Shown: positions 3,800-62,305 of the stretch, piece by piece | Layout: the number at the start of each line of letters is the position of its first letter | How positions within the stretch are numbered: position 1 is the stretch's first letter | IMG/VR virus record: IMGVR_UViG_3300029736_000004 | From: a virus | Taxonomy: Duplodnaviria; Heunggongvirae; Uroviricota; Caudoviricetes | Direction: 5' to 3' (one strand) | Length of the DNA: 64,000 nt | Notes under the pieces: generated by a model | The model's input: the letters and a program-made list of their open reading frames with translations, nothing else | Told to the model about the DNA's origin: nothing | The model's database searches: none | Program-made: the position numbers and the translations under genes

Positions 3800-3990
3800 C
3801 TTCTGAGACACATTTGAGAAAGAATTGAATTTTATATGAGAAAACAAAATAAGACCAGAAGTTAGATAGCGTAAAAAGCATCAAACTAGAGACGTAAAAG
3901 AGACACAAAAGAGACTTAGATGATACATGATGTACCCACGATACCCATTTGAGACAAATCAGAGACAAATATGAGAAGTAAGAAATCTGA
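3800..3990. repeat. parC-like centromere: phased 11-bp AGAGACA repeats
   Basis: AGAGACgtaaaAGAGACacaaaAGAGACttaga at 3888-3920 and GAGACAAATCAGAGACAAATATGAGAAG at 3950-3978, immediately upstream of parM. Confidence 0.5.
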
Positions 3991-4039
3991 AGAGTGAAAA
4001 TCACAAAGTGGAGAAGATTTAAGAAAAAGGAGGTGTTAG

Positions 4040-4324
4040 ATGAGTGCAATAGCGACCAGTGACACAGTTTGTTCTGGTCATGGAGGATTCCCTCCGCGAC
4101 CTGTAGCAGAAACAGTTTCCTGGTTTACCGTAAATGGAAAGCCAGTGGTTGTAGATGGGGGAGCGTTCCCCAGCCATACAGACGGAAATAGCGCGCACCC
4201 CGGATCAGCCGTATCGACGCGCTCATGGTTTGCAATAGGCGGAAAAGGAGTTGTTTGTGTGGGAGATCCCCTTTCTTGTGGCTCAGTCATCGCCAATGGT
4301 GAGGCAATTTTTCAGGTGTCATAA
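4040..4324 (+). CDS. PAAR-like spike-tip protein (putative)
   Basis: 94 aa; TVNGKPVVVDGG and VGDPLSCGSVIANG segments resemble PAAR repeats; AAGGAGG SD. Confidence 0.4.
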   Translation: MSAIATSDTVCSGHGGFPPRPVAETVSWFTVNGKPVVVDGGAFPSHTDGNSAHPGSAVSTRSWFAIGGKGVVCVGDPLSCGSVIANGEAIFQVS

Positions 4325-6283: not shown

Positions 6284-6663
6284 GCATTTTTCAGCTCCGG
6301 AATATCAGCCATTTCCACTAACTTCCGAAGCCCCGCGCTGACCTTCCCATTACCAACCGCAGCAAGCCAATCCCTTACTGACTTCGGCATATAAAGAGTG
6401 GTCGTTACAGGATCTTCCACTCTTACAGGCGTGCCAATTTGAGGCCACTTAACAGATGCCAAAACGTCAGAAGGCGGGGTAAGCGCGGGAACATTAAGAA
6501 TAGCCTTTCCTGAATGGAGAATCACGATTCGTTCAGCCAGGGAAAGAATGTCTCTTTCAGTAAGGATTGATGACAGTTGAGCTTCTACAAGGCATCTGCT
6601 GCTTGTATTCAGAGAATGGCTTTTAGCACCATTTTTGTATGAAACGAAGATCTTGTACGCCAT
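6271..6663 (-). CDS. hypothetical protein
   Basis: 130-aa ORF, first gene of the minus-strand pair. Confidence 0.45.
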   Translation of the reverse strand: MAYKIFVSYKNGAKSHSLNTSSRCLVEAQLSSILTERDILSLAERIVILHSGKAILNVPALTPPSDVLASVKWPQIGTPVRVEDPVTTTLYMPKSVRDWLAAVGNGKVSAGLRKLVEMADIPELKNAWRQ

Positions 6664-6679
6664 TTGTTCTAATGTTTTA

Positions 6680-6742
6680 TGTTAGAAAATTAAGATTAAA
6701 ACATACTAACACAAGATTGTTAACGAAAATTATTTTTCTAAT
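6680..6742. promoter_or_regulatory. operator-like motif cluster (inverted pair plus extra half-site) upstream of capsid gene
   Basis: TGTTAGAAAATTAA at 6680-6693 with inverted partner ACTAACA at 6705-6711, plus TTTTTCTAAT at 6733-6742. Confidence 0.45.
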
Positions 6743-6822
6743 GCTATTGACTAAATAACAAAGTGAGTATTGTCACCTCGTCAAAAGAATCTTCACGCCG
6801 CGCCCGAATTTAGGGTTTAACC

Positions 6823-8520
6823 GTGAACAAGAACATTGAGCCAGCTCGTAAGCGCGAGCGCGAGATTATGAATCGGGCGGCAAGCGTCATGGCTATGACC
6901 GTCGATCCAACCACTGATGCTGCCGGTAACATGATTGCCGACAACGAAGTGATGATGGCTAACCTGGAAAAAGCTATCCAGAAAGAGCCTATGTTTGAAG
7001 GCGTTGAACCAGAAGCAGCTCGCCAGATCATTGGTAGCTGGGCCATGTCTATTCATGAATACAAACGCCAGTATGGGCATTATCCGGCAAGCGATGTATT
7101 AGCCAACGCCCATGTAGCACTTGAGCGCCTGATGATGGAGTCCGCTAAAGAGACTCATGAAGGCGCTGGCAAAGCCATGTTTGAATCAGTAGCCAAGGAC
7201 ATGCGCACCTCCGATGGTGTAATGAAGGTTGCACAATATGCCGCACTGATCCTGCCTGCTTCTCTCGGCGCAGCCACCAGCGACGCATGTACGTTTATCC
7301 CTTGTGATCGTGATGAAACCAATATTTACGAGCTGACCAACGTTGCTGGTACAAAATTCGGTACATTCGAGCAGGGCGATGAACTGAACATGCAGTCTGC
7401 TGGAGTGTATTCGCAGATGAAACGCCTGTACATCCTGACCGAAAAAGGAGATGGCAGCAAAACCACCTTCCAGTTTGATATCCAGAACTTCGAAGGCCAG
7501 GCCTGCCCACTGCGCCAGGGCTACAACAAACTGCTGATTAACCGCAAACCGTCCAAAGTAGATGATGGTGACGGCAACCTGTATTTCAACGACAAAGACG
7601 TCAACGGCAACTCTTTCTCTGTGACGGCAAAGGTTCGATACGATACCGGCGTTATCGATATCACCTTTAATGAAGCACCAGCAGAAGGCACAGAAATCGC
7701 TGTTCAGGTTGAAATCAACATTGAACGCAATCCGAACCTGATACCTGTCATTAACCAGTCCATGCGCAATTACGCCCTGCGCCCGTCGGAGTACGTGATC
7801 GCATCCGAACATACGGTTATGGCTGCATCTGACCTGAGCCGTGAACACGGACTCGAACTGGCAGCATTGCAATTCTCTGCAATGCGCAACTGGATTTCCC
7901 ACGAAATCGATATGATGCGCCTGCGCACTCTGGTATTCCACACCGTTTACGGTCGTGAATTTGATGTGGCACTGCCAGAAGCGCAGAACTACGAGTCGTG
8001 GGTTGGTTTAATTCGCCATGTTGTGAACGCGCTGTCACAGGAGATGGCTGACCGCACCCTGACTACCGGTATCCGTGGTGGCTTTGCTGGTGGCGATGCT
8101 GCTAACTTCCTGCGTTCCTTACCGCCGCAGCACTTCCAGTTGGCACCGGGCTATGTACAGTCGCCGTACATTCAATACATCGGCACCCTGTTTGGTTCCA
8201 TTCGTATCTACGAAGTGCCGAAGCCTATCTGCAAACAATTCCAGAAATATGGCTACGACTTCGGCCTGGACGACATCTATTTCTATGGTCGTGGCGAAGG
8301 CATTGGTAAAGCAGGCCTGGTCGCAGGTGATGCTGTGCCTGCTATTCCGTATGTCCACGAAACAAATCCAGCCCTGGTGAACCGCACCACTTTCTGGGGC
8401 AAAGCAATCAACGATGTGCATCCGCGCAACGGTGAGAACTATTTCACTCGCCTTCGCCTGACACGTTCGAAAGAAGGTGCGATTGACATGTTGAGCGGGC
8501 AAATCAACGAAAAAAAGTAG
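6823..8520 (+). CDS. major capsid protein precursor (putative, P1 gp23-like)
   Basis: 565 aa (~62 kDa), size and position next to sheath/tube genes as in P1 genes 23-22-21; assignment versus sheath not certain. Confidence 0.45.
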   Translation: MNKNIEPARKREREIMNRAASVMAMTVDPTTDAAGNMIADNEVMMANLEKAIQKEPMFEGVEPEAARQIIGSWAMSIHEYKRQYGHYPASDVLANAHVALERLMMESAKETHEGAGKAMFESVAKDMRTSDGVMKVAQYAALILPASLGAATSDACTFIPCDRDETNIYELTNVAGTKFGTFEQGDELNMQSAGVYSQMKRLYILTEKGDGSKTTFQFDIQNFEGQACPLRQGYNKLLINRKPSKVDDGDGNLYFNDKDVNGNSFSVTAKVRYDTGVIDITFNEAPAEGTEIAVQVEINIERNPNLIPVINQSMRNYALRPSEYVIASEHTVMAASDLSREHGLELAALQFSAMRNWISHEIDMMRLRTLVFHTVYGREFDVALPEAQNYESWVGLIRHVVNALSQEMADRTLTTGIRGGFAGGDAANFLRSLPPQHFQLAPGYVQSPYIQYIGTLFGSIRIYEVPKPICKQFQKYGYDFGLDDIYFYGRGEGIGKAGLVAGDAVPAIPYVHETNPALVNRTTFWGKAINDVHPRNGENYFTRLRLTRSKEGAIDMLSGQINEKK

Positions 8521-56879: not shown

Positions 56880-57917
56880 TTACCAGAGTTTTGCCGCGTA
56901 CATCGTTTGTGTGAATGTGTACCCATAGCGTTCTTCAACGCTTTTACCGTATTTTTTCCTGGCTTCAGTAAGGCGGATGCCTGTCAGGTCATCGCCGGAG
57001 GCAATCATAACTTCCAGTAGTTCCAGGTCCATTTTATCCAGCCTTGCCATTGCATCTTTAGCCTCTTGAATTTTCCGGCTAACGATCTGGTGTATGGCTG
57101 GATCGGCTTCGGCCAGCATTTTATCTGATTTGTTTTTTAAACTCTGATTGCGGATATCAATGTTTCTCAGGATATATGACTTCACGACATAGCTTGGCTG
57201 CTGCTTTTCCAGATCACGAACCCGATAAAGGTCAAATTCGCCGAGAAGTCCGCACGGAAGCGGTTTAATGCCAGTGTAAATGGTAAGGGTACGGCGCTCA
57301 CCAACGTTGTTAACAACGGGAATCTCTGTGTTTGCTTTTCTTGCAAAGATCAGCGCACCGTGCGCACCCACTCGGAAGCGTGAAAGTCCATTGTTGCCCT
57401 CGATATTGGTGGTAATCACCACATCGGTATAACCTTCTTTTCTTGCGCGGTATACCTCGCCCTCACGTTCAGCGGCGAAGAATCTGCGTTCTTCTTCAAG
57501 CGCACCGACAACCTGTGAAAATATCCTGTTTTTCATGCTTTTCTTTATAGTTTTATCGTATTTTTTCAGCAGGTCTTCGCGCGTAAATGTTCTCGTTGTG
57601 GTTGCGCTTTGCATAACGATATGCGTACTCTGATTAGTATCCTCAACAATGAATGGGATCGGTAAATAAACCGACTCAACAATGTTTGAGGCTTTGTCAT
57701 CATCCTTGCGACACAGATCAACAAAGGCTTTCCATTCGGCTATGCATTTTTCAGCTTCTTCTAATACAGCCGGATCATGTGTTAATGCAACATGGCGAAA
57801 TTCCTCGCCAACATAACTGGTATCATGGAAAACAGAGTTTGCGACCACCAGCTCTTTCCACCGTTCGGCGGTTTGCAGGAACCGTTTGTACTCATTCTCG
57901 ATCGACTTCTTACTCAT
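56880..57917 (-). CDS. candidate immunity repressor (c1 position)
   Basis: 345 aa between pacB and the rox-like site, as c1 lies in P1-family pac-c1 regions; operator-like sites at 57936-57946 and 58021-58030 in its upstream region. Confidence 0.35.
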   Translation of the reverse strand: MSKKSIENEYKRFLQTAERWKELVVANSVFHDTSYVGEEFRHVALTHDPAVLEEAEKCIAEWKAFVDLCRKDDDKASNIVESVYLPIPFIVEDTNQSTHIVMQSATTTRTFTREDLLKKYDKTIKKSMKNRIFSQVVGALEEERRFFAAEREGEVYRARKEGYTDVVITTNIEGNNGLSRFRVGAHGALIFARKANTEIPVVNNVGERRTLTIYTGIKPLPCGLLGEFDLYRVRDLEKQQPSYVVKSYILRNIDIRNQSLKNKSDKMLAEADPAIHQIVSRKIQEAKDAMARLDKMDLELLEVMIASGDDLTGIRLTEARKKYGKSVEERYGYTFTQTMYAAKLW

Positions 57918-58102: not shown

Positions 58103-58134
58103 GCCCCGATTCCAACTTTAAATAATTGGCATTA
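58103..58134. other. rox-like site-specific recombination site
   Basis: CAACTTTAAATAAT-TGGC-ATTATTTAAAGTTA: 14-bp inverted arms with 4-bp spacer; 31/32 identical to the reverse complement of the D6 rox site as I recall it. Confidence 0.65.
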
Positions 58135-58296
58135 TTTAAAGTTAGGCTATAATCTCCAGTAAACAGGTAGTATTGACAAGGATGAAAAATCATGCCTCGA
58201 ATCAAAGGCTTGAATTTTGAAAATTAACTTATAACTACCCTGTCAGTTTTCTATTTTTCATGTAGCGTTATCTGTATATAGAGGTTTAATAGTTTC

Positions 58297-59325
58297 ATGG
58301 GTGAACTAGTTATCTCCGGCGGTTCTGGTGGTTTTCTGCGCGATATTGGCACCGAATACCAGGAAGCTGCAAAAAACTTTATGCAGTTCATGAACGACCA
58401 GGGAGCTTATGCCCCAAATACGCTTCGAGATCTCCGTCTGGTGTTTCATTCCTGGGCGCGGTGGTGTAACTCGCGCCAGCGCCCCTGGTTCCCGATTACG
58501 CCGGAAATGGCCCGCGAGTATCTTCTCCAGTTGCATGAGGCCGATCTGGCTTCGACCACCATTGATAAGCACTATGCCATGCTTAACATGCTGCTTTCGC
58601 AATGTGGCCTCCCGCCGCTCTCGGACGATAAAAGTGTGTCTCTGGCCATGCGGCGCATCCGGCGCGAAGCGGCAACGGAAAAAGGCGAGCGAACAGGCCA
58701 GGCTATACCGTTGCGGTGGGATGATCTGAAATTGCTCGACGTGTTGCTGTCCCGTTCCGAGCGGCTGGTGGACCTGCGCAATCGGGCGTTTCTCTTCGTG
58801 GCATACAATACCCTGATGCGTATGTCAGAAATCTCGCGCATCCGCGTCGGAGATCTGGAACAAACAGGTGACACTGTAACGCTGCATATTTCACACACGA
58901 AGACCATCACGACCGCCGCCGGACTTGATAAGGTGCTTTCTCGTTACACTACCGCCGTACTGAACGACTGGCTGGAGGTGTCCGGACTTCGAGAACATCC
59001 GGACGCGGTGCTATTCCCGCCAATACACCGCAGTAATAAGGCCAGAATCACGACAACGCCCCTTACTGCACCTGCAATGGAGAAAATATTCAGCGATGCC
59101 TGGGGGTTGCTGAACAAACGAGATGCCACGCCGAACAAAGGAAGATACCGGACGTGGACAGGCCATAGTGCGCGTGTTGGTGCGGCAATTGATATGGCTG
59201 AGAAACAGGTGTCAATGGTCGAGATCATGCAGGAAGGCACATGGAAAAAGCCCGAAACACTTATGCGATATTTGCGCCGTAGCGGGGCATCCGTTGGTGC
59301 AAATAGTCGCCTGATGGATTCATAA
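58297..59325 (+). CDS. dre: Cre-family tyrosine recombinase (Dre-like)
   Basis: WARWCNSRQRPWFPITPEMAREYLLQL...LPPLSDDKSVSLAMRRIRRE aligns with Cre WAAWCKLNNRKWFPAEPEDVRDYLLYL...SNAVSLVMRRIRKE; C-terminal WTGHSARVGAAIDMA catalytic region; rox-like site 160 bp upstream. Confidence 0.7.
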   Translation: MGELVISGGSGGFLRDIGTEYQEAAKNFMQFMNDQGAYAPNTLRDLRLVFHSWARWCNSRQRPWFPITPEMAREYLLQLHEADLASTTIDKHYAMLNMLLSQCGLPPLSDDKSVSLAMRRIRREAATEKGERTGQAIPLRWDDLKLLDVLLSRSERLVDLRNRAFLFVAYNTLMRMSEISRIRVGDLEQTGDTVTLHISHTKTITTAAGLDKVLSRYTTAVLNDWLEVSGLREHPDAVLFPPIHRSNKARITTTPLTAPAMEKIFSDAWGLLNKRDATPNKGRYRTWTGHSARVGAAIDMAEKQVSMVEIMQEGTWKKPETLMRYLRRSGASVGANSRLMDS

Positions 59326-59340: not shown

Positions 59341-59397
59341 ATCTTTTTAGACAGTGCATTTTAATGTAAAGTACCCTCGCCTATTGCGGAGGGTACT

Positions 59398-59742
59398 TTG
59401 CACAATCGTATTACGGAATCAAAACGCTTCACTGTTGACGGTTACACCATAACCTTCACTGCGGGCGTTAAGCGCGACCAGGCGGTCGTGGTGTTCGGTG
59501 TTATGACCGGACTTGATGCCGTTCCCGTATTTACCCTCGAAAAAAACTGGCGAAATCTGGAGGAAGCTGAACGCTACGTCCGGAAAGTAACCGTCATTGC
59601 TGCTGAAAAACTCCTGGCCCACTATCAGGAAAATTATCGCGCTATGACCGAGAAAATTAACCATGTTTTCACTCGCCCCACCAGCGGCTTCATTGCCCCT
59701 GATGCGAATGCCGGGCGCTATCCGGCAAGGGGGCGCAAATGA
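59398..59742 (+). CDS. hypothetical protein
   Basis: 114-aa ORF. Confidence 0.45.
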   Translation: MHNRITESKRFTVDGYTITFTAGVKRDQAVVVFGVMTGLDAVPVFTLEKNWRNLEEAERYVRKVTVIAAEKLLAHYQENYRAMTEKINHVFTRPTSGFIAPDANAGRYPARGRK

Positions 59743-60227
59743 AAACTTACTACCCATCTCTGAACTGCTATCCAACCACTAATCCTGAGCTGTCAGGGAA
59801 ACTTCTGTCCCTCCTGGCTGATAGTCCTGATGAATGGCATAAGCCTGGTGATATCAACACACAGTTCCCTGAGTACGGGTGTATCCGCACCCGAAATGAG
59901 CTGAAGAACCTCATTGCTCACGGTTTTGTCCGTCACCGTAGCGGGAAAGGCTATCAGTTGGCTATCCCACAAGGAGAGGCAAGAGAACTCTTTGGCTATC
60001 GAGAAAGCCAGACGCAAGCGCGGGTGATCGCAGAAATTATCCGTAATGGCAGCGTCTATGCCCGCAAATTCTGGCTGTCTGGCGGTGGCGATGCATCACA
60101 GTTCTTGCGTGCTGTGCGATCGCTGGAGGAACAAGGTGTAATCGAGAATACCTGCGTCTCCGTTCCGACCGCTCCGCATATCAAACGCCGGATTTATACA
60201 TTTACCCGGAGAGCTAAAAAGCAATGA
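59739..60227 (+). CDS. hypothetical protein
   Basis: 162-aa ORF overlapping neighbours by 4 nt. Confidence 0.45.
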   Translation: MKTYYPSLNCYPTTNPELSGKLLSLLADSPDEWHKPGDINTQFPEYGCIRTRNELKNLIAHGFVRHRSGKGYQLAIPQGEARELFGYRESQTQARVIAEIIRNGSVYARKFWLSGGGDASQFLRAVRSLEEQGVIENTCVSVPTAPHIKRRIYTFTRRAKKQ

Positions 60228-60718
60228 TTAACGTGAAAGTGAAACGCCTTCATCCGGCGGCAAAACTCCCCGTTTACGCCACCGCCGGATCGGCGGCGAT
60301 GGATTTTGTTGCTGTTGAAATAACGCCTGGTATCGATAGCAATGGCGCTATTTCCTCAAGCTGGTGGGTGCATACCGGCCTCGCTATGGCGATCCCTCCT
60401 GGCTGGTGTCTGAAACTTTATCCTCGTTCCGGATTGGGCTGCAAAAAGCATACGCGCCTGGCTAACTGCGTAGGAATTATCGACGCCGATTATCGCGGTG
60501 AAATCATGGCAAAACTGATTACAGATCCTGGTGGTGAAGGTGTTTGCCTCAAGCCTGGAATGGCGGTCATGCAAGGCATTTTTGAGCGTGTTGAACCGGT
60601 ATCGCTGGTAGAAGTTGATGAACTCGATGAAACAGAGCGAGGTGCTGGTGGCTTTGGTAGCACATCGGAAGACCGCATTGAAATCAAGCGTACACCGCTT
60701 CAGTACGAAAAGTTTTAA
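60224..60718 (+). CDS. dut: dUTP diphosphatase (dUTPase)
   Basis: dUTPase motifs AGSAAMD, GIIDADYRGEI and RGAGGFGSTS. Confidence 0.75.
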   Translation: MINVKVKRLHPAAKLPVYATAGSAAMDFVAVEITPGIDSNGAISSSWWVHTGLAMAIPPGWCLKLYPRSGLGCKKHTRLANCVGIIDADYRGEIMAKLITDPGGEGVCLKPGMAVMQGIFERVEPVSLVEVDELDETERGAGGFGSTSEDRIEIKRTPLQYEKF

Positions 60719-60732
60719 GTAGAGGAAAGATT

Positions 60733-61419
60733 ATGGCCAGCACTTTTCAGGTGTTCCCCAAATACAAAAGCCACAGCATCATTCGGGCATCGAAAATCAA
60801 AGATATTGTTATTGTCGGCGAAGCTTATGCGCCCATTTTTGGCAGTATCGAAGTCGTGGAGCCAAAAGGAATGACGCTTCGTGTTGATGGTGTGTTCTTG
60901 GAAAAATTCCGACCGCAAATAGGAGGATATCTCGTCACTGCTGAAAATGGCTATCTGGTCTATGTGCCAGAGAAAGCATTTGAAAAATGCTATAGCCGGG
61001 TTAACGACGCCTCCGAAAATGGGGTATCGCTCAGCATTGAAGGTCACAATGGGGTGACATTCATTACAGCCAGGGACGTAACTATTTCTGCAGGCGGTAT
61101 CGCTACTCTACAAGAAGAAATCGACCTTGAAGCAGCCGACTTTTCTGACGCGCTGATGTGGCTGAAGGATGGCAAGAAAGTTGCCCGGCGCGGGTGGAAT
61201 GGCGAAAACCAATTCTGCTGGCTGGTTCCAGACAAACAGGGCGCTTCAAGACTAACCCCTATAAAACATGCCATCAATGGAGAGCTTGAAATCAATTTCG
61301 ACTCTCCTCTTGCTCCTTATGGTACGCATTTCGCTTTGAAAAATGCACAAGGTGTAGTTGTTCCGTGGGTGCCTTCAGTTGGCGACCTGCTGGCCTGTGA
61401 CTGGTTTGTTGTGGAGTGA
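60733..61419 (+). CDS. hypothetical protein with C-terminal W-domain (MWLKDGKKVARRGW ... CDWFVVE)
   Basis: 228 aa; C-terminal domain shares the signature of three other proteins in the window. Confidence 0.45.
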   Translation: MASTFQVFPKYKSHSIIRASKIKDIVIVGEAYAPIFGSIEVVEPKGMTLRVDGVFLEKFRPQIGGYLVTAENGYLVYVPEKAFEKCYSRVNDASENGVSLSIEGHNGVTFITARDVTISAGGIATLQEEIDLEAADFSDALMWLKDGKKVARRGWNGENQFCWLVPDKQGASRLTPIKHAINGELEINFDSPLAPYGTHFALKNAQGVVVPWVPSVGDLLACDWFVVE

Positions 61420-61425
61420 TTTAAC

Positions 61426-62223
61426 GTGGAAAATACCAAGAACATTCAATATCGCCTGCGTAACGGCCTGCTGGTGGATGTAAACGATGATATGTCCCTG
61501 CCCTTTGCCACCATTGAGCGAACCATCCTTACATACCTGGGTTTAGACGAAGAGTTAGATAGTGAGAATGGCATTGCTATCTGGCGTGACGGAAAAACGG
61601 GAGTCAGACGTTTTATTACGGCAAGAGGCATTCAGTGCACACAGGAAGAATTGTTTGAACTGGCGCAGTCTTATGGATGCATCGCGTTAGATCCCCTGCA
61701 TGACCCAGCCATAGCGCAACAACTCATTCGAGAGCTGTCGCTTTCGGTCACGCCAATAATCTTCCGCCAGGGAACCTTAACCGGCACATGGCGTGTAGAA
61801 CGCATCTCTAAATATCAGCCATATAATATCCATTTGAACGGCACTATTACTGGTGTGGATCAACCAGTAGCAGGTGAAAACAAAGACCTGGAACTTGCAG
61901 TAATGATGGCTGCTTGTCGCGTGCTTGGCCTGGGCAAGCAGATGTTTATCCATTTCCCAAACGGCGCGGAAGGCGAAGTAGAGCTGATTTCCTGCGACTT
62001 TTCCTTAACCTGGATGCTTGATGAATTCCTGGACAAAACAGTATTCCGTGCTGAAGAACTGGATATGTATGTCACCTCAAGTATTCCTAATGACGTGAAA
62101 GTTGAGGCCATCGCTACAGCCAGGGCGAAATGCCGTGCGGCGATTGCAGAACAGGCCAAAGAAGAACAGTCCGATGAAGTCGCGGCAGATGTGGAAGCAG
62201 AGGATGCTGATGCTGACGCCTAA
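61426..62223 (+). CDS. hypothetical protein (acidic C-terminus)
   Basis: 265-aa ORF; hairpin terminator follows. Confidence 0.45.
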   Translation: MENTKNIQYRLRNGLLVDVNDDMSLPFATIERTILTYLGLDEELDSENGIAIWRDGKTGVRRFITARGIQCTQEELFELAQSYGCIALDPLHDPAIAQQLIRELSLSVTPIIFRQGTLTGTWRVERISKYQPYNIHLNGTITGVDQPVAGENKDLELAVMMAACRVLGLGKQMFIHFPNGAEGEVELISCDFSLTWMLDEFLDKTVFRAEELDMYVTSSIPNDVKVEAIATARAKCRAAIAEQAKEEQSDEVAADVEAEDADADA

Positions 62224-62273
62224 AAGCAAGAAATTAGCTGGCTGACAGCAGAAAAAATCATTGAGTGATAGTA

Positions 62274-62305
62274 GGAAGCCCGCTTGGTTGAGCGGGCTTC
62301 TTTTC
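62274..62305. terminator. bidirectional terminator-like hairpin between convergent genes
   Basis: GGAAGCCCGC-TTGGTTGA-GCGGGCTTC followed by TTTTC. Confidence 0.5.

Follow-up and report, generated by a model that had tools for sequence, protein, structure and literature searches.

Conserved gene cluster behind dre in a D6-like phage-plasmid, with a dUTPase gene and a putative Tad2-family sponge gene

The window considered here, the 64,000-nucleotide viral stretch IMGVR_UViG_3300029736_000004 at its full length, is by its sequence a D6-like phage-plasmid. Between dre and doc it carries a block of five plus-strand genes (59398..62223): two open reading frames for small basic proteins (ORF1 and ORF2), a dUTPase gene (dut), a Tad2-like gene and a homolog of P1 isaA. 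The block is best explained, with a probability of about 0.65, as a conserved cluster of genes that lie 3' of dre in one orientation and are for the most part coupled in translation, a three-layer mosaic composed of a backbone, a dUTPase and a Tad2-family sponge gene. The evidence consists of homology and fold, of the conservation of residues that contact the ligand, and of the distribution and mosaic make-up of the genes; from it we infer ligand binding and identity, oligomerization, the part played by a Dec-like OB domain and when the genes are expressed. An earlier note had assigned this position to variable cargo. Comparison with relatives places the block in the lineage core of D6-like elements, already deposited and annotated. 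The finding is real but largely ordinary, that of an annotated, family-conserved gene cluster: the presence of Tad2 in these elements has already been reported (2025 preprint), and apart from the Tad2-like gene the block is backbone.

Conservation of the block

The same five genes occur in the same order, from dre to doc, in phage D6 (NC_050154 / MF356679; AY753669, dre-orf3-orf2-dut). The D6 RefSeq record reads dre, orf117, orf116, dUTP diphosphatase (orf115), DUF2829 (orf114), orf113 (annotated as "similar to P1 isaA"), pdcA-like, doc, phd. A 5.2-kb region shares 84% nucleotide identity with D6 over 88% of the query, with per-gene amino acid identities of 65-94%, and the doc/phd/humD end of this region also matches P1, P7, SJ46 and others at 93-94%. 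The plasmids closest to the block are 98.8-99.1% identical. D6 differs in orf114, which encodes 146 amino acids, with the OB-fold core deleted in frame and an insert allele of 46 amino acids, and in an extra pdcA-like gene of 65 amino acids located between the IsaA-like gene and doc, in the interval 3818-4051 of the D6 locus (L001). In the window, the IsaA-like gene and doc are separated only by an 80-nt spacer (62224-62303), which holds a terminator hairpin.

In PLSDB, the block matches 238 plasmids by megablast, 102 of them over at least 80% of its length, and genes 1-3 alone, in a sensitive blastn search, are found at a coverage of at least 80% in 126 plasmids (143 hits, 125 non-mobilizable). 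For the recombinase gene dre the number of plasmids is 192 (190 by another count), and 125 of these are non-mobilizable, a figure equal to that of the genes 1-3 set, though the records may differ. The dre-positive records devoid of the block include IncY plasmids in which IS26 and resistance genes lie right behind dre. In one of these, pCUVM3.3 (IncY), IS26 and a multi-resistance region occur directly 3' of the dre homolog (6493-7700), in place of the block.

Comparing this junction across P1- and D6-like genomes, as the earlier note had proposed, thus reveals a conserved block in which variation is confined to the distal end. There, the Tad2-like gene may be present or absent, its OB domain may be deleted, its insert occurs as three alleles, and sequence is exchanged with P1-like elements. 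Plasmid pK91 of S. Typhi runs from dut to the IsaA-like gene and on to doc, without a DUF2829 gene, and pE2863-2 has an additional gene of 364 amino acids behind the IsaA-like gene. Changes of gene content between syntenic relatives are limited to the Tad2-like gene, the extra gene of pE2863-2, pdcA of D6 and the IS26/antimicrobial resistance insertion of pCUVM3.3, and this is not the turnover expected of a hotspot. Nor are several defense or anti-defense genes recognizable side by side: the Tad2-like gene is the sole one that qualifies, and PADLOC models matched no defense gene among the five proteins. The block is therefore near-universal in its family, one half of what the earlier note considered fatal to its proposal. 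The other half, essential lytic function, finds no sign: P1 lacks genes 1-3, P1 isaA is non-essential, pK91 has no Tad2-like gene, and the OB domain is lost in D6.

The layers can be told apart with the help of a distant relative, the metagenome contig L008 (from SRR17509926, 1-3604). Here a Dre-like protein (59% identity) is followed in a row by ORF1-like (43%), ORF2-like (29%) and IsaA-like (35%, 2e-55) genes. No gene stands between ORF2-like and isaA-like, and the contig has neither dut nor a Tad2-like gene. Because L008 holds ORF1, ORF2 and isaA without the other two genes, these three appear to represent an old dre-linked backbone, into which dut and the DUF2829 gene would have been inserted between ORF2 and isaA. 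This first layer travels with Dre even in a distant relative. The ORF1-like frame of L008 is only 81 amino acids long and may be frameshifted.

Divergence within the block is graded. Measured between the window and D6, pK91, pE2863-2 and L009, amino acid identity is 87-94% for Dre and 88-92% for Dut, the most conserved protein of the block, and then falls to 76-82% for ORF1, 73-75% for ORF2, 65-73% for the IsaA-like protein, which is the second fastest to diverge, and 61-71% for the Tad2-like protein, the least conserved. Judged on sequence, the Tad2-like gene behaves like a counter-defense gene: it is the least conserved, is present or absent, exists in three alleles and is exchanged between lineages.

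A stronger form of what the earlier note suggested takes the whole five-gene block as a counter-defense island, in which ORF1, ORF2, Dut and IsaA would each inhibit a host defense. Some features fit such an island: the genes are co-oriented and tightly packed beside a member of a proven anti-defense family, the fast-diverging IsaA-like gene always lies directly 3' of the Tad2-like gene, P1 isaA is non-essential as an accessory gene would be, and sponge genes cluster with other anti-defense genes elsewhere (contig L012, see below). The distribution, however, follows a backbone pattern rather than a hotspot pattern, since ORF1, ORF2 and Dut are kept in essentially all D6-like plasmids and ORF1, ORF2 and IsaA also occur in L008 without a Tad2-like gene. 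Moreover, Dut is the most conserved protein of the block, and neither ORF1, ORF2, Dut nor the IsaA-like protein has a family or fold match to a known anti-defense protein. An island of five counter-defense genes is accordingly improbable, and the suggestion of defense or counter-defense cargo holds for one gene in five, the 228-residue protein, which falls in an experimentally proven anti-defense family; the other four have no such support.

The Tad2-like protein

The fourth gene (60733..61419, plus strand, 228 amino acids, equivalent to D6 orf114) had been described from its letters as encoding a protein with a "W-domain". That domain is real. Residues 136-227 match Pfam PF11195 ("Thoeris anti-defense 2-like"/DUF2829) at 1e-21, with 77.7 bits against a cut-off of 25, and a phmmer search of the PDB retrieves ModTad2 (2.8e-13), Tad2 8v3e, SptTad2, SPO1 gp34.65 (the original Tad2) and AcrIIA7/HgmTad2. 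The earlier view that no protein of the block other than Dut could be assigned is thereby overturned for two of the four, this one and the 265-residue homolog of IsaA. In SPO1 Tad2, residues W25, N26, W73 and D79 hold 1''-3' glycocyclic ADP-ribose (gcADPR) and S76 coordinates a water molecule. The pocket W25/N26/W73/D79/S76 aligns with W155/N156/W212/D218/S215, and W155, W212, S215 and D218 are invariant across an alignment of 29 homologs; a secondary contact, I63, is leucine here. Membership of the 228-residue protein in the Tad2 family is thus well supported by homology. In a survey of 1592 sequences of the P1/D6 group, "Tad2 AcrIIA7 (anti-Thoeris)" is listed in 93% of D6 and 56% of P1 elements (2025 preprint).

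The protein is divided into three parts: an N-terminal OB-fold domain resembling phage L Dec (residues 1-92, 60733..61008), a linker (residues 93-132, 61009..61128) whose three short repeats, VSLSIE / VTFITA / VTISA, resemble beta-strands, and the Tad2/DUF2829 sponge domain (residues 133-228, 61129..61419), which carries the long-insert allele with 54 amino acids between WNG and WxPS. An AlphaFold2 model built from the 29 homologs has a mean predicted local distance difference test score (pLDDT) of 70.7 and is confident for residues 1-92 and 133-228, except for the insert (168-196). Solved members of the family (SPO1 8sme, ModTad2 9eib, HgmTad2/AcrIIA7 8kbi and SptTad2 8wjd) lack the added Dec-like OB domain and linker; the insert of the window protein is a distinct sequence of 54 residues, and several adenine-side contacts are substituted.

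As sponges for signals of Thoeris, CBASS and Pycsar systems, Tad2 proteins form tetramers with their pockets at the protomer interfaces, and family members sequester 3'cADPR, His-ADPR, N7-cADPR, cGG/cGAMP and cUMP/cCMP. With ligands so diverse, that of the 228-residue protein cannot be read from its sequence. In the reading preferred here, the Tad2-family gene directly upstream of isaA forms the third layer, and its C-terminal domain would most likely be an oligomeric sponge that binds and sequesters an immune signal of nucleotide type, the most probable candidate being the ADP-ribose derivative that a TIR protein makes in a Thoeris system. With the signal sequestered, the host effector would not be activated upon infection by, or induction of, the element.

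Alternatively, the domain could be a sponge for a cyclic (di)nucleotide, that is, cGAMP/cGG of CBASS, cUMP/cCMP of Pycsar or host c-di-GMP. HgmTad2 and SptTad2 bind cGG and cGAMP via a long insert between β2 and β5, and the window insert (54 residues) is near that of SptTad2 (57) and longer than those of SPO1 Tad2 and ModTad2 (45 in both alignments). Sequestration of cUMP and cCMP is also known from MoTad2, the closest relative with a solved structure, and the CBASS and Pycsar systems in those studies were from Escherichia. Against this, the gcADPR-pocket residues are all conserved, which makes an ADP-ribose-type ligand the simplest expectation. When aligned, the insert bears no recognizable resemblance to its SptTad2 counterpart; it is also modeled with low confidence, and insert length alone is weak evidence. 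A cyclic (di)nucleotide as the ligand may be entertained but seems unlikely.

OB extension, insert alleles and mosaic exchange

The N-terminal domain has both the OB fold and sequence similarity to Dec: by phmmer, residues 57-98 align with Dec 59-100 at E about 1e-3. Dec (6e3c) is a free-standing, capsid-binding trimer of 134 amino acids, whereas the window domain is fused to a cytoplasmic sponge domain, and capsid binding is not expected of it. Dec is described as an OB domain with a C-terminal segment that, in the trimer only, assembles into a three-stranded spike (PMC11398494). By analogy with this spike, the linker (residues 93-132), whose pLDDT is below 50 in the monomer model, may be an oligomerization element. 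Since the OB core has been removed from D6 orf114 by an in-frame deletion, the OB domain is dispensable for the phage. Further homologs have other N-terminal domains or a C-terminal crAss001_48 domain. A separate arrangement is found in cluster P0058 (E. coli, n=15, contigs of up to 88.6 kb), where Dut (residues 1 to ~144), a linker and Tad2 are fused in frame into a protein of 241 amino acids, presumably the product of a deletion that took out the 3' end of dut together with the OB domain.

Among the 120 homolog clusters listed, the insert between WNG and WxPS is 46 residues long in 48, 37 in 22 and 54 in 10, the last being the allele of the window. The 37-residue allele is accompanied by a change of WNG to WKG, in which the pocket asparagine becomes lysine. 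SptTad2 itself, with its long insert, binds cGG.

The gene also bears the mark of exchange. In SJ46-like P1-type plasmids, an OB+Tad2 gene lies after ssb and directly before isaA, whereas in P1 itself ssb is followed by isaA with no Tad2-like gene in between. Sliding nucleotide identity between the window and the SJ46-like p14076B is 94-99% over 61000-61199, 60% in the insert and 61-66% in isaA; the linker segment (61009..61128) likewise reaches 94-99% in SJ46-like P1-type plasmids. Such an identity mosaic indicates recent intragenic exchange between P1-like and D6-like families. In an unrelated phage-like contig (L012 3598-4648 / L013 916-1966), a full-length OB+Tad2 homolog (43% identity) lies directly 3' of an Acb2/Tad1-hairpin sponge gene (PF24729, 5.8e-18). 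This pairing places two signal-sponge families side by side, guilt by association for the Tad2-like gene.

Three features may be new, as variations on a known theme: an OB extension that resembles Dec, an insert that comes in three alleles, and mosaicism through exchange with P1-like elements. A bolder proposal takes OB, linker and Tad2 as an undescribed multivalent sponge, the alleles as differing signal specificities, the long insert as binding cyclic dinucleotides as well, and the gene together with isaA as a mobile counter-defense cassette swapped between P1 and D6; put together in this way, it is doubtful.

The dUTPase

The third gene, dut (60224..60718, plus strand, 164 amino acids, equivalent to D6 orf115), encodes a trimeric-type dUTPase. 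The protein matches Pfam PF00692 at 7e-13 (48.9 bits, cut-off 22), the NCBIfam dut equivalog NF001862 with 116.8 bits (cut-off 103) and TIGR00576 with 116 bits (cut-off 102.55); 59 dUTPases are matched in the PDB, the best at 2e-23, and the PHROG match agrees. Trimeric dUTPases have five conserved motifs. Four of them are present in canonical form: I, AGSAAMD (position 21); II, PRSG (67); III, GIIDADYRGE (84); and V, RGAGGFGST (139). Motif IV deviates. Residues 113-117 (60560-60574) read MAVMQ where both of the best PDB alignments have RIAQ, so that the glutamine is kept and the arginine has become alanine. This alanine is shared by four relatives, D6, pK91 and pE2863-2 among them, and a 16-residue C-terminal tail behind motif V is kept in the same three. 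Compared with bacterial trimeric dUTPases (E. coli Dut, PDB 7n56, 8y1q), the likeness lies in motifs I, II, III and V, the motif IV glutamine and the score above the equivalog cut-off, and the differences are the motif IV alanine and the conserved tail of about 16 extra residues. The label "canonical dUTPase" given in the earlier note thus suits the family matches and four motifs but not the fourth in order. A review offered no detail on the motif IV arginine.

As the second layer, the dUTPase would have been inserted between ORF2 and isaA and then kept under strong purifying selection. Most likely it holds dUTP low, which would keep uracil out of phage-plasmid DNA during replication. A literature search on Dut as an anti-defense factor returned nothing relevant.

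A mainly regulatory (moonlighting) Dut, perhaps acting with the translationally coupled ORF2, is a further alternative. Staphylococcal phage Duts act with the SaPI repressor Stl, and a regulatory side function had already been raised for this Dut in the earlier note. The overlap of the dut start with the ORF2 stop, the replaced motif IV arginine and the conserved tail would all suit such a role. The other four motifs are nevertheless intact, the score exceeds the NCBIfam equivalog cut-off, no evidence of a partner was obtained, and L008 has ORF2 without dut. This alternative is very improbable.

The IsaA-like protein

The distal gene (61426..62223, plus strand, GTG start, 265 amino acids) is the homolog of P1 isaA and D6 orf113. 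Its product is 46% identical to P1 IsaA (5e-65, over 85% of the query) and 73% to D6 orf113, matches PHROG 2326 at 1e-125 and thereby joins the P1 IsaA family. Homology to P1 IsaA (P1_gp017) and SJ46/RCS47 IsaA extends over the full length, with many invariant residues; an alignment of 16 sequences has 50 invariant columns. The family is narrow (11 clusters). An AlphaFold2 model (pLDDT 83.7, predicted template modeling score 0.78) shows two alpha/beta units together with a C-terminal helix of 40 residues that runs out into an acidic tail, and with an isoelectric point (pI) of 4.46 the protein is indeed acidic, as had been claimed. The fold model gave no functional assignment, and phmmer against the PDB yielded nothing significant. 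In P1, isaA is non-essential by CRISPR interference, with an efficiency of plating of 0.86.

In D6-like and P1-like elements that have both genes, the IsaA-like gene is always immediately 3' of the Tad2-like gene, as it is behind the OB+Tad2 gene of SJ46-like elements. The two kinds of element differ in what precedes the pair: in P1-type elements it is ssb, a gene preceded in P1 by the C1-controlled Pssb promoter, and in the window it is dut, downstream of dre. The annotated P1 isaA (L005 3324-4286) has a 57-residue N-terminal extension that is absent from all other family members. These begin at the equivalent of an internal methionine, and the start of P1 IsaA may be mis-annotated.

ORF1 and ORF2

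ORF1 (59398..59742, plus strand, 114 amino acids, TTG start, pI 9.8, equivalent to D6 orf117) and ORF2 (59739..60227, plus strand, 162 amino acids, pI 9.7, equivalent to D6 orf116) are basic, lineage-restricted orphans, and as small basic proteins they could possibly bind nucleic acids. They match PHROGs of unknown function, 1968 (4e-44) and 6669 (2e-86), respectively, and among GenBank phages both are found in D6 only. A word-index search of 5.8 billion proteins with ORF1 returned only 8 close clusters, none of them annotated, and ORF1 has no PDB or Pfam match. Its TTG start is supported by the L008 homolog, which aligns from residue 1. For ORF2, exhaustive phmmer against 1.84 billion representatives found one remote full-length homolog (P0142, 29% identity, unannotated); a phmmer search of the PDB gave nothing significant. 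In a PDB profile search, ORF2 residues 18-74 align with the C-terminal domain of EutK at a non-significant E of 0.37, a weak helix-turn-helix lead.

These proteins invite a reading in which the block serves plasmid/phage DNA metabolism and maintenance beside a dimer-resolution recombinase, by means of the dUTPase and of small proteins that bind DNA, with the Tad2-like gene as a recent passenger without a role. The position between dre (multimer resolution) and phd/doc and humD, the basic character of ORF1 and ORF2 with the helix-turn-helix lead for ORF2, the high conservation of Dut and the dispensability of the Tad2-like gene in pK91 and L008 would agree with it. A passenger without a role is hard to reconcile with an intact Tad2-like ORF, with ligand-contact residues invariant in 29 homologs, with retention in 93% of D6-like elements and with a gene that is exchanged and diversified rather than decaying. 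We consider this reading decidedly improbable.

Block anatomy and regulatory features

The ORF list for 56-64 kb contains the five plus-strand ORFs, packed with spacings of -4, -4, +14 and +6 nt in order. Their sizes, coordinates and spacings, and their position between dre and doc, are all as first reported. Start-stop overlaps (ATGA) couple ORF1, ORF2 and dut: the start of ORF2 overlaps the stop of ORF1, and that of dut the stop of ORF2. Upstream lies dre (58297-59325), a Cre-like tyrosine recombinase gene with a Phage_integrase match at 9e-17; the 3' flank is convergent and consists of doc (Fic/DOC), phd and an S24 peptidase gene (humD).

The spacer between dre and ORF1 (72 nt) holds a hairpin (59365..59402, plus strand) that was predicted with RNAfold just 3' of the dre stop and reaches over the ORF1 start. 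Its region has a minimum free energy of -26.7 kcal/mol (z -4.2; none of 200 shuffles was as stable), and it pairs both the GGAGG Shine-Dalgarno sequence (59388-59392) and the TTG start (59398) of ORF1. The hairpin is kept in D6, in pE2863-2 and, with changes, in pK91. It was not called as an intrinsic terminator in a consensus scan, only UUU following the core stem, and as modeled it suggests occlusion or attenuation of translation rather than termination. The sole strong sigma-70-like site nearby (58126-58153, 11/12 matches) is upstream of dre. The possibility that the spacer between dre and ORF1 holds a P1-type late promoter was rejected, because the stretch is not conserved in D6 or pE2863-2.

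At the other end, a likely intrinsic terminator (62274..62301, plus strand) has a GC-rich 12-bp stem (z -3.3) followed by UUUUC and is separated by 3 nt from the stop of doc, which converges on it. The bidirectional terminator shared with doc that had been suggested is thus a real hairpin, whose T-tract and terminator call are on the plus strand only. Divergently upstream of dre, a c1-like repressor gene (56880-57917, minus strand) encodes 345 amino acids; the product is 69% identical to one with a precomputed PF27008 Phage_P7_repressor_C1 hit and had no match in a local Pfam scan. Because the P1 C1 operator consensus gave 0 matches over the whole window at up to 3 mismatches, control by C1 as at P1 Pssb could not be shown.

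Weight of the evidence

Several observations weigh against the block as a three-layer mosaic with a signal sponge and a working dUTPase. For the sponge, the adenine-side contacts of SPO1 Tad2 are changed (T78->G, H71->V, D67->Q, T65->N), and the protein has 228 amino acids with an N-terminal extension of 132 residues, in contrast to the small single-domain Tad2 proteins of ~90-105 amino acids that have been assayed. The insert on which ligand specificity depends is modeled at pLDDT <50, and therefore the ligand cannot be named. The dUTPase is without the motif IV arginine, so its enzyme activity is assumed. Three of the five proteins, ORF1, ORF2 and the IsaA-like protein, received no functional assignment from family and fold searches. 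Finally, the consensus scan found no promoter between dre and ORF1, and the hairpin occludes the ORF1 ribosome-binding site.

Implications

In clinical E. coli, Shigella and Salmonella, phage-plasmids of the D6-like and P1-like kinds are frequently encountered. Their establishment in hosts with TIR-, CBASS- or Pycsar-type immunity would be easier to understand if nearly all of them carried a gene for a signal sponge. The question is narrowed, in that among the five genes the Tad2-like gene alone has a testable counter-defense role, and for IsaA, which in P1 has lacked an explanation for two decades, a confident fold model is now available. The natural variants, with and without the OB domain, with three insert alleles and with a Dut-Tad2 fusion, provide a ready experimental series on the roles of the added domain and of the insert.

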